Shown: positions 17,753 through 54,952, counted from the first letter of the stretch. The stretch is 64,000 nt of DNA from Alphaproteobacteria bacterium (GCA_045605805.1 JAZUQR010000010.1:70815-134814), one strand, 5' to 3'. Notes: a model not told the origin generated them from the sequence alone. Made by a program: numbers and translations.

Positions 17753-20700
17753 TTAAGGGTCTCTGTTTTCACCGGAGTAGTCACCTGTTTTAACTGTGTT
17801 ATTTGCGTCACAGTTTGTTGTGTGCTCTAGACTGTTACTGTTTCCACACAGCTTTCCAGGAGTTGTACAACCGTATTCTCTCCATTTTCTGTCGTGACTT
17901 TTCGGCGGGCATATGCTGGTTGGAGCAACCTCCCCCTTCTCAATACATGTTCCATCACCTTGTGCCATATCTGTGCACCCACACTGCGTTCTTACAGCAC
18001 AATTCGCACAGCTTCCATTGTGGCAGTGTTTACCAGGGCCACAATGGTCATGCAAGGTGCATTGCACACATTGTTGCTTGTTGGTGTCCCACTTTGACGT
18101 GTTCGTTGGACAGGCTATACACTCACCATTCTTCCATATTGGCGTGTTCGTTGGGCAGGGCTCACATGTTTTGTTTGTGGCGTTCCAAACTGGGTTTGTT
18201 GGATCTGCTGCGGCACAGGTCGCGCAGGCAGAACCATCCCAAGCTGGTTTGTTTTGATATACTGAAACACAAGGCACGCATGTTTTACTTGTGGCGTTCC
18301 AAACTGGTCTTGTTGAATCTGCTACGGCACATGACACACATTCTTTCTTTGTGTCGTTCCAAACTGGTGTGTTCTCATTTGCTGCGGCACAGGTCACGCA
18401 TGTTTTTCTTGTGGCGTCCCAAACTGGTGTGTCTGAATTGTTATCGGCACAGGTCACACAGGCGTTTCCGTCCCAAAACGGTTCCTCTGATGGGCATTCT
18501 GAACAAGAGTTGTTTTCACATTTTGGTGCGGCGCCAGGGCAATGGCTGTGTTCTGTACATTGTACACATGTGTTATTATTTGTGTTGTCAGCGTCCACTT
18601 TACAAACTCTTTTGTCAATGACCTCCCCACTTGACCTTTTGTTTTGCCGTGGGTTATAGCTTGAATGATCTACGGTGCTACCACACCCCAAATCTGTCCA
18701 ATTGGAGGAAATGGAATCATAACATTTCACACATTTTTCATTATATAGATCCCAAACTGGGGTCTCCGCTGGGCAGGCCTCACATGTAGTTCCGTTCCAA
18801 ACAGGCGTTTTTTCGTTATATCTGAAACACGAAACACAACGATTGCGCCACGCATCCCAGACGGGCGTTTTGCTATCCTTTGATGGATCTTCGGGATCCT
18901 TTGTTTTATCACATTGACAGGTTTTGTCGCCTTCATTTGGTACCATTGTGGTGTTGCACCCAGCCACACACAAACCATTTTCCAAATCACACCATTCGCC
19001 CGGGCAATCTCCTCCTTTTGTACACGCCACACATTTATTCCCCGCACATAATCCTTTTTTACAATCCTCATTTTCCAAACATTCCACACAGGCGGTTCCG
19101 TTCCAAAATGGTGTGGCTGAATTGTTGGCGGCACAGGTCACGCACTCAAAACCATTCCAAGCTGGGGTGTTCTCTGGGCAGGCCTCACAGGTAGTTCCAT
19201 TCCAGTGTTCGCCCTCTGGGCAGGCCTCACAGGTAGTTCCATTCCAAACTGGTGTGTCTGAATTGTTGACGGCACAGGTCACGCACTCAGAACCATTCCA
19301 CTTTGGCGTGGCCTCTGGGCAGACCTCACAGGTAGTTCCATTCCAAACTGGTGTGACCTCATCTACGTCGGCACAGGTCACGCAGGAAAAACTATTCCAT
19401 ATTGGCCTGTTCGTTGGGCAGGCCTCACATTCTTCTGATGTGGTTGCGCCGGTGCCAGCGGTGGTTTGATTATCACCACAGAATATACAACCTTCATTAC
19501 CTGCCGAGATTTTATATGTACCCTTGTCACATGGGGTGCAAGTGCCGTCGTCTTTTAATGTATAGCCGGCCTTACACTGGCATTGATCGCCGCTCCATTC
19601 ACTATTTGTTGGGCAGGCCTCACATGCTTCACTTGTGCTATTCCACTTTGGCGTGTCCTCTGGGCAGGCCTCACATTCTGTGCCACTCCAAACTGGTTTT
19701 TTTTGATCTGCTACGGCACAGGTCACGCATTGTCCCTTTTCTTCTATGACCTTCCAAACTGGTGTGTTCTCATTTGCTGCGGCGCAGGTCACGCATGTGT
19801 GATAAACTTTATCGCATACTGGTGTATCCTCAGAGCAAGACCATTCGCTTTCGGCACCAAAATCTCCATAACATTCCTGACAGGCCGTTCCATGTTTATT
19901 TTCATCTTCGCAGCCGCAGGTGTAGTCGGTCTTACAGATTTGATTGCCTTCGCAATTATCCTTTTCTGTACATTGCACGCAGGCCTCTCCGTTCCAATAT
20001 GGCGTGGCCTCATCTACGTCGGCACAGGTCACGCAGTCGTTTCCGTCCCAAAACGTATCAGCTTGGCAGGCCTCACATTCTGTGTCATTCCACTTTGGCT
20101 TGTCCTCTGGGCAGGCCTCACAGGTAGTTCCATTCCAGTGTTCGCCCTCTGGGCAGACGCAGGTGTTGCTTTCACATACTTTCCCCCCTGAACAATCAGC
20201 AGTTTGCACACACTCCTCACATTGATTTGTTGTATCATTCCAGTGTTCGTTCTCTGGGCAGGTACAGCTACATACATTGTCATTCCATGACCGTCCTCCC
20301 TCCCCACATGACGCTTGTTTTTGATAACATGTGCCGTCATACCAGCAACCGTTTTGGGTGGTACAAGCCGTTTTCTCTGTACAGGGAGATGTTGTGCTTC
20401 CCGGTACACAGGGGCAGGTGTCCTTTGGCATACACACACCAGCCTCACACCACTCCATCCCCTGTGTCTTTGTACATTTGTCTGCATCGCAGTGTAGCTT
20501 TCTTAGGTCTGTATCAGCTATTGCACAACCACACAGAGTGTAGTTTTGGGTACTAGTCTCCATTGCCGTTAAAACTTTACCCTCGTCATCACAACAGACA
20601 TTCTCATATCCTTTTGAACCATCTGGGCAACCACAGGCATCTGAATCATCACATATTTCAATTCCGCCTAACACTGTATAACAGTTCTGTCCATTTTTAC

Positions 20701-21109
20701 AACAAAGATTTTCTTTTGACACGTTGTCCCATGGTAATCTATATCCCTCTGGGCAACCACAGGTTGGCATAAAATAAGAACTATAATCCTTTCCGTCATA
20801 TATTTTCTTATCCTTACAGCAGACATACTGATTACCATGTGGCGTTAGGGTTCCGCCGTCCGGACAGGTGCATTCTGCTTCCTGAACTGTACCATCCGCA
20901 TTAACTGTACATTGATTCTCTTCGGCTGTGGTCAAGCCGCCTTGTTGGACAAAGACTTCGTCTATGGTGGGGGTGGAAACAGAACTTGTGGCCAAATCAA
21001 CCACCTGCATGTTTTCATTCAATCGGATTTGGATTGAACCAACATCTGCCCATATTTTATGGGAACACAAAAACGAAAGACAAAAAAGCAACAAATATTT
21101 CTTTTTCAT
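17753..21109 (-). CDS. Secreted, extremely cysteine-rich tandem-repeat protein (CXXC / TPxWNxT modules). Eukaryotic-like (VSP- or furin-like). Hypothetical surface or effector protein.
   Basis: Signal peptide MKKKYLLLFCLSFLCSHKIWA (the track ORF starts at an upstream TTG; ATG is at 21107-21109). More than 25 tandem ~17-aa modules such as C(V/E)(T/A)C-x(4-7)-TP(V/I/K)WNGT-x-C. Visibly higher G+C than flanking genes. Multiple overlapping out-of-frame ORFs, as expected for repeat DNA. Confidence 0.75.
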   Translation of the reverse strand: MKKKYLLLFCLSFLCSHKIWADVGSIQIRLNENMQVVDLATSSVSTPTIDEVFVQQGGLTTAEENQCTVNADGTVQEAECTCPDGGTLTPHGNQYVCCKDKKIYDGKDYSSYFMPTCGCPEGYRLPWDNVSKENLCCKNGQNCYTVLGGIEICDDSDACGCPDGSKGYENVCCDDEGKVLTAMETSTQNYTLCGCAIADTDLRKLHCDADKCTKTQGMEWCEAGVCMPKDTCPCVPGSTTSPCTEKTACTTQNGCWYDGTCYQKQASCGEGGRSWNDNVCSCTCPENEHWNDTTNQCEECVQTADCSGGKVCESNTCVCPEGEHWNGTTCEACPEDKPKWNDTECEACQADTFWDGNDCVTCADVDEATPYWNGEACVQCTEKDNCEGNQICKTDYTCGCEDENKHGTACQECYGDFGAESEWSCSEDTPVCDKVYHTCVTCAAANENTPVWKVIEEKGQCVTCAVADQKKPVWSGTECEACPEDTPKWNSTSEACEACPTNSEWSGDQCQCKAGYTLKDDGTCTPCDKGTYKISAGNEGCIFCGDNQTTAGTGATTSEECEACPTNRPIWNSFSCVTCADVDEVTPVWNGTTCEVCPEATPKWNGSECVTCAVNNSDTPVWNGTTCEACPEGEHWNGTTCEACPENTPAWNGFECVTCAANNSATPFWNGTACVECLENEDCKKGLCAGNKCVACTKGGDCPGEWCDLENGLCVAGCNTTMVPNEGDKTCQCDKTKDPEDPSKDSKTPVWDAWRNRCVSCFRYNEKTPVWNGTTCEACPAETPVWDLYNEKCVKCYDSISSNWTDLGCGSTVDHSSYNPRQNKRSSGEVIDKRVCKVDADNTNNNTCVQCTEHSHCPGAAPKCENNSCSECPSEEPFWDGNACVTCADNNSDTPVWDATRKTCVTCAAANENTPVWNDTKKECVSCAVADSTRPVWNATSKTCVPCVSVYQNKPAWDGSACATCAAADPTNPVWNATNKTCEPCPTNTPIWKNGECIACPTNTSKWDTNKQQCVQCTLHDHCGPGKHCHNGSCANCAVRTQCGCTDMAQGDGTCIEKGEVAPTSICPPKSHDRKWREYGCTTPGKLCGNSNSLEHTTNCDANNTVKTGDYSGENRDP
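19173..20156. repeat. Internal DNA repeats in the Cys-rich gene. A ~51-bp exact direct repeat (19173-19223 and 20106-20156) plus a local tandem copy (19216-19247) and many degenerate copies of tctgggcaggcctcaca…
   Basis: Read directly: tctgggcaggcctcacaggtagttccattccagtgttcgccctctgggcag occurs at both positions. Confidence 0.8.
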
Positions 21110-21128
21110 TTCCAAATCCTTTGAATCT

Positions 21129-24306: not shown

Positions 24307-24335
24307 TTGACAATTTTTAAGTTTTATGGTATAAT
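24307..24335 (+). promoter_or_regulatory. Consensus sigma-70 promoter TTGACA-17-TATAAT plus a strong AGGAGG RBS for the 24366 gene
   Basis: ttgaca at 24307-24312 and tataat at 24330-24335 with a 17-nt spacer. aggagg at 24354-24359. ATG at 24366. Confidence 0.5.
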
Positions 24336-24365: not shown

Positions 24366-25886
24366 ATGAACAAAAAAGAAACTGTTTTTCACATCGAAAC
24401 AAAAAACGCAATCAATACTTTACAACCACATCCTAAAACCGCATATCTAACAGAGCTGGCTGAGGAGAAAAAACGTTCCTTCCAACGCAAAGGTTTGTTG
24501 GCTATTGCCACTTCTGCTGTTTTAGGTTTGACGGCTTTCTTTTCTTTTGGTAAAAAAGGAAATGATACGACCCGACCTGATACACCTGCTTCTTCAAAAA
24601 TACAAAAAACAGAAAAAGCCAAACGACCAGCAACACCATTGTATGAAACATTGGCTGCTACACAAACAAATGTGTTGGACAATGCTGCGACCGTGTTGCC
24701 CCCTGATCCTTTTAACTATTATACAAATCAATTTTCCAAAGTTTTGTCAAAGGATGTTTCTCTTGATACGATTCAAACATATGCTTCGGCTATGACAAAT
24801 TTGCCCCCTAATCCTTTTAACTATTATACAAATCAATTTTCCAAAGTTTTGTCAAAGGATGTTTCTCTTGATACGATTCAAGCATATGCTTCGGCTATGA
24901 CAAATTTGACAACCAACCCTAAAACACAACGGGTTGCGCTGGTTTCTTCCGAAACATTATTGAAAAAAATGGTTGCCTTGTTTGAGACTATGCCCACACA
25001 TCAATTGACAGATTTGGCTGAGGGTAAATTAGACACCGGATATTTTTCTTATGACAGAATCACACAAGCTGTGGTTAAGAATCCAGAAAATACACGGGAT
25101 ATCATCCAACGCACTGTTGAAGTGACACAGGCTTATGCTTTACATCGCCAATGCCAATCCCACATTGAAGCAAACGAAGGAAACTGTTTATATCTTTATT
25201 GGGACAATGCCACAAAGGATGAAAAACCCAATCCTCAACCCACAGTGGGCATTGGGCTTAACATCAATGCCAACCCTTCTTTAAGAAATCTTCGTTATAA
25301 AAACAGCCCAAAAGTTCAACAGATTTTAGGCACAAATGCTCAAGATGAATATATTACTTTATCCTCCGCTCAGATGCGCCGGTTAACGCAATATGTTAAA
25401 AATAATCTCTTTGACAAAGATGCTTCCATCTATCAGAAAGAATTAGGTTTGAATATTCATCCTGAGGATGTGGCAAAGCTGGATGCCTTATTCAAGCAAA
25501 AACTTGCCCAGTCTATTCAAAATGCCGAAACTTTTTTACAGACAAAAAAACCAAGTGCTTCCTCTGTTATGTTTGGGACTTATCACACCCCTGTGCCATT
25601 AGAGTTTGCCAGTGTTGCTGTTGATTTGGATTTTAATTTAGGAACAACAAAGTTCCAAGAATATAACAACTTTGCAACTGCCTATGCCAACAGACAGTGG
25701 ACTGTAGCCAAACAAGAATGTTCCACAAAACAAGAACGCAAGCAACGCGCATTACATCAGTCTGATGCCTCAAAAAGCGATTCTAAACGTCTTATGTGGA
25801 AGGAAGCGACTTTTGATAAAGGCATACAGGCAGTAACCAAGCAAAATGCTGAAAGAGTTTATTCAGATAAGAACGCTGTTCGCTGA
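24366..25886 (+). CDS. Membrane-anchored hypothetical protein with a phage/T4-type lysozyme (GH24)-like catalytic motif and an internal 35-aa tandem duplication
   Basis: TM helix LLAIATSAVLGLTAFFSF at ~aa 44-61. Motif IEANEGNCLYLYWDNATKDE…TVGIGLNIN parallels T4 lysozyme E11-x8-D20…T26 ([23 protein letters not shown]). Confidence 0.45.
   Translation: MNKKETVFHIETKNAINTLQPHPKTAYLTELAEEKKRSFQRKGLLAIATSAVLGLTAFFSFGKKGNDTTRPDTPASSKIQKTEKAKRPATPLYETLAATQTNVLDNAATVLPPDPFNYYTNQFSKVLSKDVSLDTIQTYASAMTNLPPNPFNYYTNQFSKVLSKDVSLDTIQAYASAMTNLTTNPKTQRVALVSSETLLKKMVALFETMPTHQLTDLAEGKLDTGYFSYDRITQAVVKNPENTRDIIQRTVEVTQAYALHRQCQSHIEANEGNCLYLYWDNATKDEKPNPQPTVGIGLNINANPSLRNLRYKNSPKVQQILGTNAQDEYITLSSAQMRRLTQYVKNNLFDKDASIYQKELGLNIHPEDVAKLDALFKQKLAQSIQNAETFLQTKKPSASSVMFGTYHTPVPLEFASVAVDLDFNLGTTKFQEYNNFATAYANRQWTVAKQECSTKQERKQRALHQSDASKSDSKRLMWKEATFDKGIQAVTKQNAERVYSDKNAVR
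24699..24908 (+). repeat. Perfect in-frame tandem duplication of 2 x 105 bp (35 aa) with 2 mismatches
   Basis: Copy 1 at 24699-24803 and copy 2 at 24804-24908 (PPDPFNYYTNQFSKVLSKDVSLDTIQTYASAMTNL / PPNPFNYY…QAYASAMTNL). Confidence 0.9.
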
Positions 25887-27835: not shown

Positions 27836-27868
27836 AAAATCTCCCGCTTTTCAACGGGAGTTTTTTTT
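27836..27868. terminator. Bidirectional rho-independent terminator between the convergent pckG and NYN genes
   Basis: aaaaaaatctcccg-cttttcaa-cgggag-tttttttt: a 6-bp GC-rich stem flanked by an A-run and a T-run. Confidence 0.6.
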
Positions 27869-29399
27869 AGTCACGATCGTTTCCCTTCATTTTTGATTTT
27901 TGACGCAGACGAAGTGTTGCACTGCGTTCTTGTTTTGTTGGTTTTCTTATATAGACAAAATCTTTTTCTTCATCCAACAAGTCGGCCGCCTCGTATTTCA
28001 ACAAACCTGCTTTTTTCTTAAATAATTTATGCTCTGTTTGTTTTGATTTGTTGTGTCTTCTTTTATTCTCGCTTTCCTTTGGAATTGGACCAACCGCCTC
28101 TTCGCACAATTTTTTATCATCAATCGCAAATGAATAGACTCCGGTGACATTTTCAAACAATTGTTTTGGGACACGTGTATTACTGATATCCAATAATTCC
28201 ACACACACACCGGCATTTTTCATCTGTTCTACGCCCTGCATAAAATCTGTATCCCGTGACAACAAGTGAACGGTATCTATACTTGAATCAAAACGGGCCA
28301 ATGCCATGTCATAGGCAATTCTGTCATCCACATCATACTGTTGAATATTCGCATCAAAGTCAGTTGCTTGGCGTTCTGAGTGTGGCACTTTCCATTTTCT
28401 TTCTTTCAAAATTGTATAATAAGGTTCTTTTTGTTGGATTGTTCCTTGACTGATTATAGATTTTTTTGGCATCTCATGCGGCACTTCGGACAATAAGAAC
28501 ACCCGACTTTGTCTTTTCGGATTCTTGACTTTGCTGTGCATTTTTGAAGAAGTATAGCAAATGATTTCCAAATCTTGTGTGTTTATTTTTTCCAAAACTT
28601 TTCCCAACAACAAACTTAGATTTTTTTCTGTCAACTTTATTTTTTTTGAATGTAAATAAGCACTCATCAAGCCCATATCTATCATCAAGATATTTCTTTT
28701 TATGGGATTGTTTTGTCGCATTTGACTTAATACCTCAGGCAACTGTTCTGGTTGAATTGAGCTGATTTTGTCTTGTATTTTTTTCAACTCTTCAATGGAA
28801 GACAATTTTGGCTCTTGTGCTTCAAATGATGCTTCTATCTTTGGTCTGTTGCCATTAAACTCTATCCAATCAACATCCACACCTAATGCTGTTGTGACTT
28901 TTGCAGCATACGCTAAATCTTTTGAGTCACCCAACACAAATATCTTTTTCACCTGACCTTTAACAGCGGTTTCTGCCATGTGGTCCACCAATTTTGTTGT
29001 GACCCCTTTTTTTTGAACCTGTAATTCAAAATCATTATCCCTTAGGTCTTTTGGTTTTTTTTCAAAACTTTCTGGTTTCATAATCCATTTGCCATAATCC
29101 ATCTTTTGGCTGCGTCCCCAGTCTGTTTCAAAACTTTTTGCATTTGAAACGCCTTTTTTGTATAGCTCGCTTTTCATATCCTTTTCAAGATATGCTTTTT
29201 TACTGATTGGCCATTGCGCATCATAGATAGGGCGGGAACCATAATAGTGTATGGACACATCCGCACGAGGATGATTTTGTTTTATTTCCGATACCGCATT
29301 ATACAAAAACTTGATAATTGATTGCGCACCATAAGGTTGACCAGCCTCTATGATGTGTTTTTTAAGTGTTTCCCCATCTACAAATAAAATTGTATCCAT
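27867..29399 (-). CDS. Tandem NYN (LabA/PIN-like) domain protein with a basic C-terminal tail. Putative RNase or RNA-binding protein.
   Basis: Domain 1: ILFVDGETL … KIFVLGDSKD. Domain 2: ILMIDMGLM … HLLSRDTDFMQGVEQMKNAGVCVEL. The C-terminus is Lys/Arg-rich. Confidence 0.6.
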   Translation of the reverse strand: MDTILFVDGETLKKHIIEAGQPYGAQSIIKFLYNAVSEIKQNHPRADVSIHYYGSRPIYDAQWPISKKAYLEKDMKSELYKKGVSNAKSFETDWGRSQKMDYGKWIMKPESFEKKPKDLRDNDFELQVQKKGVTTKLVDHMAETAVKGQVKKIFVLGDSKDLAYAAKVTTALGVDVDWIEFNGNRPKIEASFEAQEPKLSSIEELKKIQDKISSIQPEQLPEVLSQMRQNNPIKRNILMIDMGLMSAYLHSKKIKLTEKNLSLLLGKVLEKINTQDLEIICYTSSKMHSKVKNPKRQSRVFLLSEVPHEMPKKSIISQGTIQQKEPYYTILKERKWKVPHSERQATDFDANIQQYDVDDRIAYDMALARFDSSIDTVHLLSRDTDFMQGVEQMKNAGVCVELLDISNTRVPKQLFENVTGVYSFAIDDKKLCEEAVGPIPKESENKRRHNKSKQTEHKLFKKKAGLLKYEAADLLDEEKDFVYIRKPTKQERSATLRLRQKSKMKGNDRD

Positions 29400-36230: not shown

Positions 36231-36241
36231 ATGCCAAAAAA

Positions 36242-37048
36242 TTATTTTCCCTTATTGCTTTTGATGTTTTGCCCCATGTAGACACGCAAAGTATCTGTGT
36301 TTTGAATCTCTTGAATGGCCTTGTCATAACTTTGGCGCATTTGGTCACACATCATATTGTAAAAAACATGTGGCGTGCGTGTTTCATAATAATTTTCCAT
36401 CCCGGAGATATAATCTTCCCGATCATAGATGGACAACGGAATGTAGCCATTTTTATCCAATATCCACGCAGACACCAAACGCCCTGTTCGCTTATTCCCA
36501 TCGTTAAAGGGGTGAATTGCCACCGTATTGTAGTTGGCCTCAATCGCTTGCATCACCGGATTATGTGACAGCTTTTGAAACTCTTTATTTGGGGCTTCTT
36601 CCCAATAAAATGCCGGAATATGATTTTGGTTGATACCATCCACCAAATTTTCCATATGTACGGGGATTTTAATGCTGTTTGACAAGATAATGGTGGAATT
36701 ACGCCAACGGGCGGGCATTGTTCTGAAAACACCACCGATTCTGGGATTTTCCGAAGCAATCAATGCCCCATGTATATCTTTAATAAACGGCACTTCTAAC
36801 ACAGTTTTTGGGGCCATCCGAACCATATTATAGGCATTGGTCAAGGCTTGTCTATTTTCTTGTTGTAATTGAAAGGTCACTTTATCCGGCACAATATCAA
36901 AACGGCTTGCCAATTCGGCTGCGCTTTCCCACAATGCCTGTCTTAATTCTTGTTGATATTTACTTTTATTCAACAAAATCTTATAGGTTTTCTTTTGTTT
37001 TTCAATTGCTGCCAATTCTTTTGATAAGTGAGTCATCACAGCCTCCAT
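36242..37048 (-). CDS. Fic/Doc-family protein with a Doc-type active-site motif
   Basis: HPFNDGNKRTGR fits the Doc variant HxFx(D/N)(A/G)NKR rather than the canonical Fic HPFx(D/E)GNGR. 268 aa. It is 46 nt downstream of dnaJ on the same strand. Confidence 0.7.
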   Translation of the reverse strand: MEAVMTHLSKELAAIEKQKKTYKILLNKSKYQQELRQALWESAAELASRFDIVPDKVTFQLQQENRQALTNAYNMVRMAPKTVLEVPFIKDIHGALIASENPRIGGVFRTMPARWRNSTIILSNSIKIPVHMENLVDGINQNHIPAFYWEEAPNKEFQKLSHNPVMQAIEANYNTVAIHPFNDGNKRTGRLVSAWILDKNGYIPLSIYDREDYISGMENYYETRTPHVFYNMMCDQMRQSYDKAIQEIQNTDTLRVYMGQNIKSNKGK

Positions 37049-37094
37049 ATTATATGGCGGTTATTGTACATTCTTTTTGTGTTTTTGTCAAGTT

Positions 37095-38204
37095 TTATCC
37101 AAAAATCTTACCCAACAGGTTCTTAAAATCATCACACAGGCTGGAATCCGATTTATTCAGATTCGCAAACTGTTGCAACAGTTCTTTTTGTTCGGTCGTT
37201 AAATTGGTGGGTGTTTCCACTTGGAAAGTGACATACAAATCGCCAAACCTGTCTGATTTCAAAATCGGCATACCTTTTTTCGCTATTTTCACCTGTGTAC
37301 CCGATTGAAGTCCGGCTTTGATTGTATAGTTTTCGCCTTTGCCGTCCAAAGTGGGGATAAACACCTCTCCACCCAACGCAGCCGTCACCATTGGCACCGG
37401 CACTTTGATAAACAAATCATTACCTTGGCGTTCAAACAATTTATGCGGTTTGACATTCAAAAAGACATATAAATCGCCTGTTGTACCGCCATTTGGCCCC
37501 ACATCCCCTTCTTCCGAAAGGCGCATTCTGACCCCTGTTTCCACACCGGCAGGAATGGCTATTTCCAATTCTCGTTTTTTACGCACACGCCCTGTGCCAG
37601 CACAATCTTCACACGGATGTTTGATTGTTTGGCCTGTTCCATGACAGATTGGACAGGTTGTTTCCATCATAAAAACGCCCTGTCTTTGACGCACAACGCC
37701 CATCCCATTACATGTGGAACAAGTTTGTAAATCTTCACCGCCTGCGCCTTTACAGGCGTCACAGGCCACAAATGTGTTGACATTGATTTTTTTCTTTATC
37801 CCGTGAAAGGCTTCTTCCAAAGTGATATCCAAATCATATCGCACATCGGCACCATGGGCTTTTTCAGAACGAGGCCGCCCCCGTGCCATCCCAAACATTT
37901 CGGCAAACAAATCTTCAAAGCCAAAGCCGGAAAAATCAAAACCGCCAAAGCCTCCTTGAAAGCCGCCAGCACCCCCCATTCCTGACTTAAAGGCTTCGTG
38001 TCCCACTCGGTCATAGGTGGCCCGCTTATCGTTATCTTTTAACACCTCATACGCTTCGGCCAATTCTTTGAACTTTTTTTCGGCTTCGAGATCACCTGCA
38101 TGATGATCAGGGTGACAACTCATTGCTTTGACACGAAAAGCCCGCTTGATTTCATCAAACGAGGCTGTGCGTTCTACACCCAATGTTTCATAATAGTCTG
38201 CCAT
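37095..38204 (-). CDS. dnaJ: Chaperone DnaJ
   Basis: J-domain (…HPD…), G/F region, and four CxxCxGxG zinc-finger repeats. Confidence 0.9.
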
Positions 38205-38278
38205 TTACATAACCCTTTATGTGTTGATATGTGTAAAAAAGGGGTGGCTTTTTTCCACCCCCTTTTCGTTGTTTTTAT

Positions 38279-40189
38279 TTATTTTTTCACTTCTTCGTAG
38301 TCAGCATCTACCACTTCTTCTTGTGGCTTTTCGCCTTCGGAAGCATTGGCTGTGCTGTCACCAGCAGAAGCAGATTGTGCTTCTTGGGCCGCTTTATACA
38401 TGGCTTCGCCCATTTTAATGCTGGCGTTTTGAAGAGCTTCTGTTTTTTCTTTGATACGGGCTGTATCATTGGATTCAGAGGCTTCTTTTAATTCTTTGAC
38501 GCAGGCTTCAATGGCTTCTTTATCAGCCGGTTGCATTTTATCACCATTTTCTTTTAACATTTTTTCTGTGCTTGCAATCATCGCATCCGCATGGTTTTTC
38601 GCATCAGCTGCTTCTTTGAATTTCTTATCTTCTTCAGCGTGCGCTTCGGCATCTTTCACCATTTTTTCAATGTCTGCATCAGACAAACCGCCAGACGATT
38701 GAATGCGAATACTTTGTTCTTTGCCAGTTGCTTTATCTTTTGCTGACACATTCACAATGCCGTTGGCATCAATATCAAAGCTGACTTCAATTTGCGGCAT
38801 ACCCCGTGGTGCAGGTGGAATCCCCACCAAGTCAAATTGTCCCAACAATTTATTGTCACGAGCAATTTCACGTTCCCCTTGGAACACACGAATTGTGACG
38901 GCTGTTTGTCCATCTTCTGCGGTTGAGAAGACTTGGGATTTCTTTGTTGGAATGGTTGTGTTGCGTTCAATTAAACGAGTGAACACACCGCCCAATGTTT
39001 CAATACCCAATGACAACGGGGTCACATCCAACAACAGAACATCTTTCACATCCCCTTTTAACACACCGCCTTGAATGGCTGCGCCCATAGACACAACTTC
39101 ATCCGGATTCACACCCTTATGGGCTTCTTTACCAAAGAAGTCTTGTACCAATTTTTGAACAGCCGGCATACGGGTCATCCCACCCACCAAGATGACTTCG
39201 TCAATTTGGTTTTTGGACAGACCAGCATCTTTTAAGGCTTTTTCCATTGGACCTTTGGTGCGTTCCAACAAATCTTCCACCAACGATTCCAATTTGGCCC
39301 GTGTCATTGAGATATTCAAGTGCTTTGGACCTGTGGCATCGGCTGTAATAAATGGCAAATTGATGTCTGTTTGGTTGGCACTGGACAATTCAATTTTTGC
39401 TTTTTCGGCTGCTTCTTTCAAGCGTTGCAAGGCCATACGGTCTTGGCGCAAATCAATGCCGTTTTCTTTTTTGAATTCATCGGCCAAATAATCCATAATG
39501 CGAGCATCAAAGTCTTCACCACCCAAGAATGTATCTCCGTTGGTAGATTTCACTTCAAACACACCATCACCAATTTCCAAAATGGATACATCAAATGTGC
39601 CGCCACCCAAGTCATACACAGCGATTGTGCCAGATTTCTTTTGGTCCATTCCATAGGCCAAAGCGGCTGCGGTTGGTTCGTTGATAATGCGCAACACTTC
39701 CAAACCGGCAATTTTACCAGCATCTTTTGTGGCTTGACGTTGTGAGTCATCAAAATAAGCCGGCACTGTAATAATTGCCTGTGTGATTTTTTCACCCAGA
39801 TAGGCTTCGGCATCTTCTTTTAATTTTTGCAAAACGAACGCAGACACTTGACTTGGGGCATATTTTTTACCGTCCACTTCCACCCAAGCATCTCCATTAT
39901 CGCCAGAGATAATGTGATATGGCACCATATTTTTATCTTTTTCCACCATTTTATCGTCAAACCGACGGCCGATTAAACGCTTGATGGAATACAGCGTGCC
40001 TTGTGGGTTTGTCACTGCTTGACGCTTTGCCGGTTGTCCAACCAAGCGTTCCCCTTTGCTTGTGAAAGCCACGATTGAAGGCGTCGTTCTTGCCCCTTCT
40101 CGGTTTTCCAATACTTTGGCACTTTTGCCATCCATAATAGACATACAAGAGTTTGTTGTCCCTAAGTCAATACCTAATATTTTACTCAT
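38279..40189 (-). CDS. dnaK: Chaperone DnaK (Hsp70)
   Basis: [15 protein letters not shown]…, DLGGGTFD, and C-terminal EEVKK. Start at [10 protein letters not shown] is preferred over the upstream ORF extension. Confidence 0.95.
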
Positions 40190-40319
40190 TTTTGCTCCTT
40201 TGTTAAATAACTTGTGAACAGTATATGGGTCATACCATCGTATTTTGCAACAGGCAAATGCATTTTTTTCTTTAATTTTTTTATTTTTTTGATTAAACTG
40301 ATTCAAAAAAGGATGACAT

Positions 40320-52633: not shown

Positions 52634-54952
52634 ATGACCATTCAAACGCTTAAAGATGATGATTTATATCGGTTCAGTGCGCTGACGGCTGCCGATATAA
52701 AGAAAATTAAACCAAAGGCCACTATCTTGGGCCAAAATCGGGCTGTATCTGCCCTTAATTTTGGCATCAATATGCCAGCTAATGGTTATCATGTTTTTTC
52801 TGTGGGACCAAAGGGTGTGGGCAGAACTTCTTTAAGTTTGAACATTGTAAAACAGAATGCCTTAAAGTTTGATGCCCCTAATGATTGGTGCTATGTCACA
52901 AACTTTGATGATTATAACCGCCCTCAGCCCCTTTCTTTTCCTGCGGGACAAGGCAAACTTTTTGCCCAAGATATGAACAAAGCGGCCTTGGAAATTAAAC
53001 AAAAACTGGCTGTCACTTTTAATGATGAGGCTTATAAAATTGAGTTGGCTCACATTGAACAAGAGTTTGCCGCAGAAAAAGAATCTTATTTTCAAAAGCT
53101 GCACAAAGTTGTGGCCACAGATTATGTCACTTTATCCCGCCTTCCTTCTGGTTTAGTGGTGGCGCCTGTTGTTAAAGGACAAACTTTGAATCCAGACCAA
53201 TTTAATGCCTTGCCCTTAAAAACACGCAAGATGATTTTGAATCAAATGAAGGCTGCACAAGAACGATTGGAACAGGCCTTAAAAAATACGCCCGAATGGC
53301 AATTGTTGCAAGCCCAAAAAGTGATGGCGCTTAAACAGCATCTGATTGCACAGATTTTGAACACTCATTTGAAAAAAATTATTAAAACTTATGCGTCTTG
53401 CCCTTGTGTATCGGCTTATTTAACGGCTGTTCAAAATTATTTATTGGATAACATTGCTTTTGTTGTGCCGGATAAAACTGTTCCTGCCGATCAAATACGC
53501 CTTTTTTGGTCCAGATTGGCTGTGAATCCTTTTGTTTTGAATGACCCCAAAAAAGGGGCCCCAGTGGTTCATTTAAGTCGGCCTACCATTCCTCATTTAC
53601 TGGGGCGCATTGAACGAGTGCCTGTGGGTGGTTCATTGATGACTGATCATTCCATGATTCATGCGGGAGCTTTACATCAAGCCAATGGCGGTATTTTAGT
53701 GATAGAGGCACAAGAGTTTTTAGATTCCCCCCAATTATGGCCTTTATTAAAGCGGGCCTTATTTTCGGCTCAGATTAAAATGGATGCCGGTGATGAAACC
53801 AGCATTTTTACCAATATGACATTGGATCCCTTGCCCATTCCATTGTCTATTAAAGTTGTGTTGGTGGGAGATTCTCATTTGTATACCGCACTCAGCAGTA
53901 AAGACAGTGAGTTTTCTCAATTATTTAAGTTAGAAGCTCAATTTACCGAAAAAACAACACGGACAACCGATTTAGAAAAAGTATATATTGCCTCGTTGAT
54001 GGATTTTCGTGTGCAACACAAGTTATTGCCTTTTGCACCAACTACATTGAAAATCTTGGTTGAAATGGCAGCCAGAAAGGCTCAGGATAAAAACAGTTTA
54101 ACCATGCATGTTGTCTATATTCACGATTTAATGCGAGAGGCCGATTTTGAAGCCAGAACTTTGGGTGCTAAAACCGTCACGCCTGCCCATTTGGAACATG
54201 CTTTGGTTCAACGCTATTATCGCTTGGGCGCGCCGCAAGAAGAAATGATGAAGGCCATTAAAAGCGGCACGCTTCAAATTCAAACAGACGGCTTAAAGGT
54301 TGGACAATTGAATTCGTTGGTGATTCATCAATATGGTTCGTTTTCGTTTGGACGGCCGTCCCGAGTGACCTGTCAAATTCGCTTGGGCAGCGGAAAAGTG
54401 ACCGATATTGAACGAGAAGTTTCTTTGGGCGGTGCTTTACATACCAAAGGCGTTTTGATTTTGGCGGCTTATTTGGCCGGCACCTATGGTCGGGATATGC
54501 CTTTGCCTGTGGATGCCAGCTTGGTGATGGAACAATCCTATAACGAAATTGATGGGGATTCAGCCAGTGCAGCGGAACTTTATACTTTATTATCTGCTAT
54601 TTCTGATGTGCCTTTGAACCAATCTATTGCTGTGACGGGAGCCATCAACCAATTAGGCGAAGTGTTGGCTGTGGGGGCTGTGAATGAAAAAATTGAAGGC
54701 TATTTTGATGTGTGTGTTCAAAAAGGCTTGACAGGACATCAAGGGGTGATTATTCCCAAAGCGGTTGTGCAATCGTTGATGTTGGATGAACGGGTCAGAA
54801 ATGCGGTTGATAACAAACAATTCCATTTGTGGGCGGTGGATACCGTTGATGAAGGGATGCAGATTTTAACCGGATTGACTCCGGCACAATTCAAAAAACG
54901 TCTTACCAAACGCTTGGCCGAGTTCACCGCAAAAGCCAAAAAAGCAAAATAA
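52634..54952 (+). CDS. Lon-like (S16) protease with an N-terminal AAA-like domain bearing a degenerate Walker A (YcbZ/LonC-like)
   Basis: C-terminal Lon proteolytic domain with Ser (…DGDSASAA…) and Lys (…VGAVNEKIEG…). N-terminal P-loop-like GPKGVGRTS, where Arg replaces the canonical Lys. Confidence 0.7.
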   Translation: MTIQTLKDDDLYRFSALTAADIKKIKPKATILGQNRAVSALNFGINMPANGYHVFSVGPKGVGRTSLSLNIVKQNALKFDAPNDWCYVTNFDDYNRPQPLSFPAGQGKLFAQDMNKAALEIKQKLAVTFNDEAYKIELAHIEQEFAAEKESYFQKLHKVVATDYVTLSRLPSGLVVAPVVKGQTLNPDQFNALPLKTRKMILNQMKAAQERLEQALKNTPEWQLLQAQKVMALKQHLIAQILNTHLKKIIKTYASCPCVSAYLTAVQNYLLDNIAFVVPDKTVPADQIRLFWSRLAVNPFVLNDPKKGAPVVHLSRPTIPHLLGRIERVPVGGSLMTDHSMIHAGALHQANGGILVIEAQEFLDSPQLWPLLKRALFSAQIKMDAGDETSIFTNMTLDPLPIPLSIKVVLVGDSHLYTALSSKDSEFSQLFKLEAQFTEKTTRTTDLEKVYIASLMDFRVQHKLLPFAPTTLKILVEMAARKAQDKNSLTMHVVYIHDLMREADFEARTLGAKTVTPAHLEHALVQRYYRLGAPQEEMMKAIKSGTLQIQTDGLKVGQLNSLVIHQYGSFSFGRPSRVTCQIRLGSGKVTDIEREVSLGGALHTKGVLILAAYLAGTYGRDMPLPVDASLVMEQSYNEIDGDSASAAELYTLLSAISDVPLNQSIAVTGAINQLGEVLAVGAVNEKIEGYFDVCVQKGLTGHQGVIIPKAVVQSLMLDERVRNAVDNKQFHLWAVDTVDEGMQILTGLTPAQFKKRLTKRLAEFTAKAKKAK

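Follow-up and report, generated by a model that had tools for sequence, protein, structure and literature searches.

A putative Fic subfamily with a hybrid active site, encoded next to dnaK-dnaJ in an alphaproteobacterial genome

The Fic enzymes, which modify proteins, form a versatile family in which Doc is the only kinase-type member characterised. Doc of phage P1, encoded after its antitoxin Phd (the Phd-Doc system, NCBIfam model TIGR01550), is a protein of ∼126 aa that has no second motif Arg and is described as lacking a flap; its motif is HxFx(D/N)(A/G)NKR (PMC4177925). The Lys of this motif takes the place of the second Gly (position G2) of canonical Fic proteins. With this replacement Doc binds ATP inverted and acts as a kinase (PMC4177925, PMC8401265); a side chain of any kind at G2 is incompatible with canonical binding of ATP (PMC8401265, PMC4177925). 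Human FICD/HYPE has the motif HPFIDGNGR and an inhibitory helix, TVAIEN, with a Glu required for auto-inhibition and deAMPylation; FICD-type deAMPylation needs this Glu (PMC8401265). In AnkX, the Fic phosphocholine transferase of Legionella, an inserted element supports inverted nucleotide binding (PMC4177925). Here we describe a Fic protein gene, fic, located next to dnaK and dnaJ in a 64,000-nt stretch of DNA (hereafter the window) from an Alphaproteobacteria bacterium (GCA_045605805.1, JAZUQR010000010.1:70815-134814). An earlier note on this DNA had presented the gene as coding for a Doc-type protein and as the third gene of the dnaK-dnaJ operon.

We read the fic product, with moderate confidence, as a stand-alone, cytoplasmic Fic transferase of non-canonical (non-AMPylating) type that is transcribed independently of its neighbours. 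The best explanation for the position of fic beside dnaK-dnaJ is local gene order, not membership in a functional operon. The argument is carried by three features of the protein (a Lys at G2, the loss of the inhibitory Glu and an insertion, all set in a FICD-like scaffold) and by a promoter that accompanies fic in all readable orthologous loci.

The Fic family, its fold and its active site

The protein matches the Pfam Fic model PF02661 with 51 bits (cutoff 24) over residues 86-197. Its family is tiny, with ∼25 sequences in total; 21 proteins were found among 5.8 billion clusters, all of them from metagenomes and 43-95% identical. Among 1.84 billion proteins we found five cluster representatives at E ≤ 1e-30, the next best match (7e-24) being a generic Fic protein. 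Scans of genome contigs and JGI metagenome contigs produced motif-level matches only (Doc-like, ∼325-aa Lys-type and generic Fic proteins) and no true orthologues. Judged by its sequences, the family is a previously undescribed Fic subfamily with a hybrid active site, narrowly distributed within one alphaproteobacterial lineage.

The Fic motif HPFNDGNKR (residues 175-183) fits the general pattern HxFx(D/E/N)(G/A)N(G/K)R and also the Doc pattern, as the earlier note had observed. The extended motif HPFxD(G/A)NKRxxRL is characteristic of the whole family, with H, P, F, D, N, K, R, R and L invariant in the 21 sequences. The canonical class II signature HxFx(D/E)GNGRxxR is absent from the family, G2 being Lys in 21/21 sequences.

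A model built with AlphaFold2 on the family alignment (predicted local distance difference test, pLDDT, 82.7; predicted template modelling score, pTM, 0.84) has an all-α Fic fold with the catalytic motif in a loop between two core helices (residues 160-174 and 181-195). When the model was compared with the PDB by Foldseek, 49 Fic chains matched at E ≤ 1e-3. The best matches were human FICD (6i7g; template modelling score, TM, 0.71; E = 1e-8), C. elegans FIC-1, BT_2513 (TM 0.70), Dde_2494 and SoFic; no Doc structure appeared among the top 50 matches listed. A search of PDB sequences with the family profile gave a similar picture: FICD was matched at 4e-10, and Doc was absent from the matches at E ≤ 0.01. 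The Doc model TIGR01550 scored 24.0 bits against a cutoff of 38.65 and covered residues 173-202 only (30 residues). The Fic fold proposed in the earlier note is borne out by the Pfam, AlphaFold2 and Foldseek results. The designation ‘Doc-type’ is not: the Doc model stays under its cutoff, FICD and other class II proteins are closest by both profile and fold, and the flap and the second Arg are kept.

The order of elements along the chain (N-terminal helical hairpin, inhibitory-equivalent helix, flap segment, catalytic loop) is that of class II Fic proteins, both in the model and in hhalign alignments; the alignment to the class II protein P0026 extends over residues 6-240 with a probability of 99.5%. 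Bacterial class II proteins (SoFic, BT_2513, P0026, P0027 and P0029) have the overall length and helix order of the window Fic. Outside the family, the closest sequences are two of these, P0026 and P0027 (E = 1e-24 to 1e-20), which share with the window Fic an N-terminal K(I/L)xxQKxxY...W region. These enzymes differ from the window Fic in keeping HPFxDGNGR and an SxxLE-type inhibitory motif and in having no insertion.

Invariant residues of the family are found in the catalytic loop, the flap (target-docking) segment and the insertion (positions are given in Table 1). In the flap, residues R105, A109, W111, S114, N120, K123 and P125 are invariant in the 21-sequence alignment. In the insertion, A142, F143, Y144, W145, E147, F153 and Q154 are invariant; hhalign places its PAFYWEE..FQ residues opposite gaps in the canonical class II proteins P0026 and P0030. 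The position of the inhibitory Glu is occupied by A, T, L or Y in every family member. A search for an inhibitory helix in cis, as had been suggested, found no (S/T)xxxE(G/N) motif in the window protein or in 20/21 family members, and the single match is not conserved as an alignment column. This loss would fit a site that no longer needs, or is no longer able to use, auto-inhibition of the class II kind. Since the Glu is absent, deAMPylation of the FICD type is argued against as well.

Comparison with the described systems brings out the hybrid character of the active site. With Doc, the window Fic shares membership in the Fido superfamily and the Lys-at-G2 motif; it differs from Doc in its length, class II N-terminal helices, flap segment, second Arg and lack of an adjoining antitoxin gene. 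Short Doc-like ORFs (open reading frames) that we fetched were, unlike the window Fic, devoid of a flap-equivalent segment and of the second motif Arg. With FICD and FIC-1, the best matches by fold and profile, it shares the second Arg and the succession of N-terminal helices, flap and catalytic loop. It differs from FICD in the G2 Lys, the Ala at the Glu position and the additional PAFYWEE insertion, and has neither tetratricopeptide repeat domain nor membrane anchor. AnkX offers a precedent for an inverted nucleotide donor and transfer of the distal group; AnkX itself has the motif HPFRDANGR without Lys, a large CMP-binding insert and ankyrin repeats, and no sequence relation to the window Fic beyond the fold was found.

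Lys at G2 was common in the motif-matched loci that we fetched, both in short Doc-like ORFs and in ∼325-aa proteins with HPFNDGNKRSGA, whereas Lys together with the second Arg occurred in 5/128 motif-bearing ORFs. Many genomes (loci L001-L129) code for proteins of ∼320-335 aa in which a Lys-type motif, HPFNDGNKRSGA, is found C-terminally, near residue 260. Like the window Fic they have Lys at G2 and are larger than Doc; unlike it they carry the Fic/Doc domain at the C terminus and have Ala, Ser or Leu instead of the second Arg, and our query matched them over ∼30 residues around the motif. As far as motifs can tell, these proteins show that a lysine of Doc type is also widespread in proteins other than the small Doc toxins. 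Two further proteins of ∼265 aa (P0042 and P0044) have a similar N terminus and the motif QPFSDANKR, in which Gln stands in place of the catalytic His and Lys remains at G2; these relatives may be inactive or may act differently.

Gene order, promoter and leader of fic

The ORF list has dnaK, dnaJ and fic head-to-tail, all on the minus strand, with 46 nt between the dnaJ stop codon and the first in-frame ATG of fic, just as previously described. The ORF itself also stands, while its length has to be revised: translation almost certainly starts at the second ATG, 58 nt from the dnaJ stop codon, and the protein has 264 rather than 268 residues. We moved the start because 20/20 homologues in the alignment begin at the position equivalent to the second ATG, because a GGAGG Shine-Dalgarno sequence is located 5 nt 5′ of it, and because public gene calls give 264 aa for 11/14 members of the cluster of the window Fic protein. 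At this length the protein is still about twice the size of Doc, as noted before.

On the 3′ side, fic faces a convergent RNase D gene (rnd) with its stop codon 11 nt away. The two gene ends are separated by positions 36231..36241 in the window, and relatives show overlaps of 4 to 108 nt instead (L081, 7807..7810; L082, 7793..7900); therefore there is no space for terminators on either strand. The GC content of fic in the window is average. No ORF fits inside the dnaJ-fic gap; with dnaJ upstream and convergent rnd downstream, no Phd-like antitoxin gene adjoins fic, in agreement with the earlier note.

The dnaJ-fic gap contains a sigma-70-type promoter (Table 1) that had been missed; its TTGACA hexamer begins 3 nt past the dnaJ stop codon. 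Exact occurrences of TTGACA-N17-TANAAT number two in the 64-kb window, compared with 0.1 expected by chance. The second occurrence (24307..24335, plus strand) is located 30 nt 5′ of a 506-aa ORF (24366..25886, plus strand) without a Pfam match.

A sigma-70-type element was detected 5′ of fic in 8/8 readable orthologous loci, which represent four upstream contexts: the preceding gene is dnaJ in four loci (L082, L084, L087 and L088), a small ORF by ssb in two (L085 and L086), a MORN-like gene in L130 and an unknown gene in L132. The -35 hexamer TTGACA is kept in all eight. Seven loci have a 17-nt spacer and L132 has one of 16-17 nt, the spacer sequences varying freely. The -10 hexamers among these loci are TAAAAT, TACAAT, TATAAT, GATAAT, TAAACT and TAGACT. 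As the promoter is present whatever gene lies 5′, it travels with fic and not with dnaJ.

A terminator- or attenuator-like hairpin between dnaK and dnaJ (a G+C-rich palindrome that the scan reports on the plus strand) is kept in five related loci (L081-L084 and L087), with compensatory stem changes from GGGGGTGG/CCACCCC to GGGGGCAG/CTGCCCC. The hairpin probably attenuates dnaJ relative to dnaK. The claim of the earlier note that no terminator intervenes in the dnaJ-fic gap holds, our scan having found no terminator-like site there; the hairpin between dnaK and dnaJ had been overlooked. A check for a sigma-32 promoter upstream of dnaK, proposed in the same note, was positive: a sigma-32-like element is present there and is near-identical in L081 and L082. 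The heat-shock consensus of sigma-32 is CTTGAAA-N13-17-CCCCATnT; the likeness of the dnaK element was judged from this consensus and is not a scored test. Taken together, the signals let the locus read as a heat-shock dnaK unit, putatively attenuated before dnaJ and followed by a separately promoted fic.

The leader of fic in the window, 26 nt from the -10 hexamer to the start codon, is predicted to form a hairpin whose stem takes up the Shine-Dalgarno sequence, leaving it ∼0.2 unpaired at 25-45°C. Similar Shine-Dalgarno-pairing hairpins are predicted in L084, L087 and L088, hairpins abutting the AUG in L082 and L086, and little structure in L085, L130 and L132. Folding z-scores are modest (-1.3 to -1.9) except in L087 (-4.2). 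The predicted structures suggest that the hairpin is a probable brake on translation. An RNA thermometer was considered and rejected: the hairpins are predicted to stay closed at 25-45°C, the z-scores are modest, and Rfam gave no ROSE, FourU or other credible family match to the leader even at E ≤ 10.

Table 1. Positions of the genes, protein segments and predicted signals of the fic locus in the window
Feature	Position	Strand	Description
sigma-32-like promoter	40222..40250	-	TTGCAAA-N14-CCCATATA; upstream of dnaK
dnaK	38279..40189	-	636 aa; Pfam HSP70, 925 bits
Terminator/attenuator-like hairpin	38235..38262	-	GGGGGTGG-loop-CCACCCC followed by T6; between dnaK and dnaJ
dnaJ	37095..38204	-	369 aa; Pfam DnaJ, DnaJ_CXXCXGXG, DnaJ_C
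sigma-70-type promoter	37063..37091	-	TTGACA-17-TACAAT; 11/12 consensus positions (promoter scan)
5′ untranslated region hairpin of fic	37042..37060	-	CCGCCAUAU/AUAUGGAGG; predicted to pair the Shine-Dalgarno sequence; minimum free energy -7.8 kcal/mol, z = -1.9
fic coding sequence	36242..37036	-	from second ATG; first in-frame ATG at 37048
Inhibitory-helix-equivalent AAELAS	36905..36922	-	residues 39-44; Ala at inhibitory Glu position; pairs with SNSLER of P0026 (hhalign)
Flap (target-docking) segment	36662..36733	-	GGVFRTMPARWRNSTIILSNSIKIP; residues 102-125; aligned by hhalign to class II flap region; short strands in model
Insertion	36575..36616	-	(V/I)PAFYWEExP(D/N)xxFQ; residues 141-154 (14 residues); precedes helix leading into catalytic loop
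Catalytic loop	36479..36514	-	HPFNDGNKRTGR; residues 175-186; Lys182 at G2; second Arg R186 kept

Conservation of the dnaJ-fic linkage was examined in the family. Five members at 50-59% identity are encoded in a dnaK-dnaJ-fic-(rnd) context; one contig starts inside the gene 5′ of fic. In these dnaJ-linked loci (clade A) the neighbourhood is collinear for >10 kb in either direction. DnaJ of these loci shares 82% identity with that of the window, and 90-93% within the group. The collinearity of the whole neighbourhood and the DnaJ identities therefore define the dnaJ-fic loci as one shallow clade. Among the loci compared, the order dnaJ-fic was confined to those whose DnaJ is at least 82% identical to that of the window. 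Two sister lineages, with DnaJ 70% and 65% identical to it, retain the order MFS-DivIC-GGDEF-dnaK-dnaJ and have other genes after dnaJ: rpmI-rplT-pheS-pheT in L133 and two unknown ORFs in L135. The synteny breakpoint (L133, 5111..5212; L135, 5108..5450) is located exactly at the 3′ end of dnaJ and marks a recurrent point of rearrangement. Deeper family members, at 43-47% identity, and more distant ones are encoded beside ssb, rplM or unknown genes. In clade B (P0019 and P0021, 43-45% identity) fic is flanked by ssb plus a small ORF on one side and by an ABC permease gene on the other; the fic gene of P0024 lies between a MORN-like gene and rplM, and that of P0025 follows a gene without a DnaJ domain.

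These data bear directly on the possibility of a heat-shock operon dnaK-dnaJ-fic in which fic, as third cistron, codes for a product that modifies DnaK/DnaJ or translation factors under heat in the way FICD acts on BiP. The common strand, the gap of 46-58 nt free of terminator-like sites and the sigma-32-like promoter 5′ of dnaK speak in its favour; so does the fold, closest to that of the BiP-modifying FICD, and C. elegans FIC-1 is reported to modify Hsp70s and elongation factors (PMC4854385). Nevertheless, we consider such an operon unlikely. A conserved sigma-70 promoter belongs to fic itself, whatever the genomic context, and a conserved hairpin with a T-run already punctuates the unit after dnaK. 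Adjacency to dnaJ does not extend beyond the shallow, collinear clade, being absent in the sister lineages and in the deeper members of the family. A promoter and terminator that set fic apart from dnaJ had been named beforehand as an observation against the operon, and missing linkage in relatives as one that would weaken the functional inference; the promoter and the missing linkage are what we find. Moreover, with the deAMPylation Glu missing and Lys at G2, FICD-type chemistry is improbable. Our literature search found no bacterial Fic protein acting on DnaK, only YdiU/SelO, which UMPylates DnaK and GroEL; nor did the sequence data contain anything pointing specifically to DnaK, DnaJ or EF-Tu as the target of the window Fic. 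The parallel drawn with FICD and BiP relies on an adjacency that is shallow in phylogenetic terms and broken by a conserved promoter. A chaperone-regulating role of fic is not supported, and it should not be assumed from adjacency alone.

Clade B has a conserved ORF of 69-70 aa located ∼90 nt 5′ of fic (L085, 3973..4182; L086, 2366..2578). The small protein contains TIRPED, loosely similar to the inhibitory motif (S/T)xxxE(G/N), and it could be a partner or inhibitor of the Fic protein to judge from its position and sequence. It was tried as a candidate antitoxin and rejected, having no Pfam match and no homologue in the window.

Proposed chemistry and possible roles

The preferred reading of fic, an independently transcribed gene for a non-canonical transferase, would work as follows. 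A near-consensus sigma-70 promoter would provide steady transcription, perhaps with some read-through from dnaJ, and the leader hairpin pairing the Shine-Dalgarno sequence would limit translation. In the protein, the side chain at G2 would block canonical binding of the ATP α-phosphate, and the nucleotide donor would be bound in an inverted or otherwise altered pose. With His175 as the putative general base, the distal group of the donor would be transferred, by analogy with Doc, to a hydroxyl side chain on a target segment or strand docked at the flap; if the donor is ATP, this group would be phosphate and the enzyme a kinase. Without the inhibitory Glu there would be no auto-inhibition of class II style. 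The PAFYWEE insertion may shape the binding of donor or target, for which the inserted element of AnkX would be a precedent. Since Lys is expected to block canonical α-phosphate binding, AMP transfer is unlikely. We infer by analogy that the family does not AMPylate canonically and that transfer of a distal group from an inverted donor is most likely; by the same analogy the enzyme is probably a kinase. The probabilities that we attach to the readings of chemistry and of role overlap and are not meant to sum to one.

Several points weigh against this reading. The kinase inference has one characterised precedent, Doc, which differs in architecture and has no second Arg. The second Arg and flap retained in the family could mean a canonical nucleotide site or the use of another donor. 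Model confidence is lowest in the flap and the insertion (pLDDT <50 at residues 112-116 and 144-146), and therefore the model does not fix where the insertion sits with respect to the active site. On the side of transcription, the fic promoter is a predicted consensus match and not a mapped transcription start. The lack of a terminator between dnaJ and fic makes some read-through from dnaJ possible; heat-shock-driven co-expression of fic is thus possible too.

On another view the second Arg, the flap and the Asp retained in the enzyme would keep its nucleotide binding normal; it would be a canonical transferase of AMP (or another nucleoside monophosphate) despite the Lys, made constitutively active by the loss of the Glu. 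His, Asp/Asn, the second Arg and the flap segment are all conserved, and the closest sequence relatives outside the family are HPFxDGNGR class II enzymes. The older motif statements of Kinch (2009) and Worby (2009) reportedly allow G or K at G2. We nonetheless find canonical transfer quite improbable. The Lys is invariant and comes along with two other changes, the missing Glu and a new invariant insertion, which suggests a remodelled substrate site, and according to the reports quoted above ATP is unable to bind canonically when G2 carries a side chain (PMC8401265, PMC4177925).

The same Lys, in an exact Doc-pattern motif, could be taken to indicate an orphan Doc-like toxin, that is, by analogy, a kinase that phosphorylates EF-Tu and arrests translation and is curbed by its own low translation instead of an antitoxin. 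The weak TIGR01550 match, the sequestered Shine-Dalgarno sequence in most clade A orthologues and the small ORF of clade B, a candidate partner, would agree with such a toxin. We regard it as improbable: the TIGR01550 score is under the cutoff and covers 30 residues only, and the protein is twice as long as Doc and possesses a flap segment as well as N-terminal helices of the class II type. The window has neither an antitoxin gene nor a homologue of the clade B small ORF. An unguarded lethal toxin is unlikely in view of the near-consensus constitutive promoter, odd for such a gene, and of the stable, syntenic vertical inheritance, unlike that of toxin-antitoxin modules, which are usually patchy and mobile. 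PADLOC reported generic SoFic and PDC-S04 Fic-domain matches only, with no system context.

Another role that we weighed is that of a secreted effector, translocated by a host-associated, protist symbiont-like bacterium to modify a host protein. The nearest named relatives of the window DnaJ are from Alphaproteobacteria metagenome-assembled genomes and from the Paramecium symbiont Candidatus Bealeia (54%). The window also codes for a protein with an Ephrin_rec_like domain, and relatives have mTERF-domain proteins. Fic is the fastest-evolving of the block genes compared (51-65% identical, versus 82-93% for DnaJ, 70-81% for Rnd and 78-86% for Lgt). At their C terminus the family proteins have disordered, variable tails with a net positive charge in 18/20 members; such tails resemble secretion signals of the VirB/D4 type. 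However, no secretion system or chaperone gene was seen near fic in the examined part of the window. The surroundings are housekeeping genes, the GC content is average and inheritance is apparently vertical. The basic tail of the window Fic is short (11 residues) and overlaps the 3′ end of convergent rnd in relatives, which could alone explain the variability; the host association of the lineage is itself only presumed. An effector role appears doubtful to us, though less so than the chaperone-linked operon, the orphan toxin or the canonical transferase.

Most far-reaching would be a new catalytic class, in which three changes turned a FICD-like scaffold into a constitutive kinase or a transferase with a new donor, boosted under heat by read-through from dnaJ and acting on the Hsp70 system or a translation factor. 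We hold this to be very improbable. If true, it would constitute a bacterial analogue of the action of FICD on BiP with different chemistry.

Apart from these roles, the family described here, with its Doc-type lysine in a FICD-like scaffold, provides a natural test of whether a Gly-to-Lys change alone switches a Fic enzyme from AMP to phosphate transfer; the contributions of inhibitory Glu loss and of the insertion could be tested as well. The subfamily should be moderately interesting to Fic specialists.

Other genes in the window

Three genes far from fic deserve mention. A 1120-aa ORF (17753..21115, minus strand) has the match to the eukaryote-type Ephrin_rec_like domain referred to above and a G+C content of 0.47-0.50 versus ∼0.41; it could be a host-interaction gene or horizontally acquired. 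A 510-aa protein with a partial NYN-domain match is encoded at 27867..29399 on the minus strand, and a LonB/LonC-like AAA protease at 52634..54952 on the plus strand.

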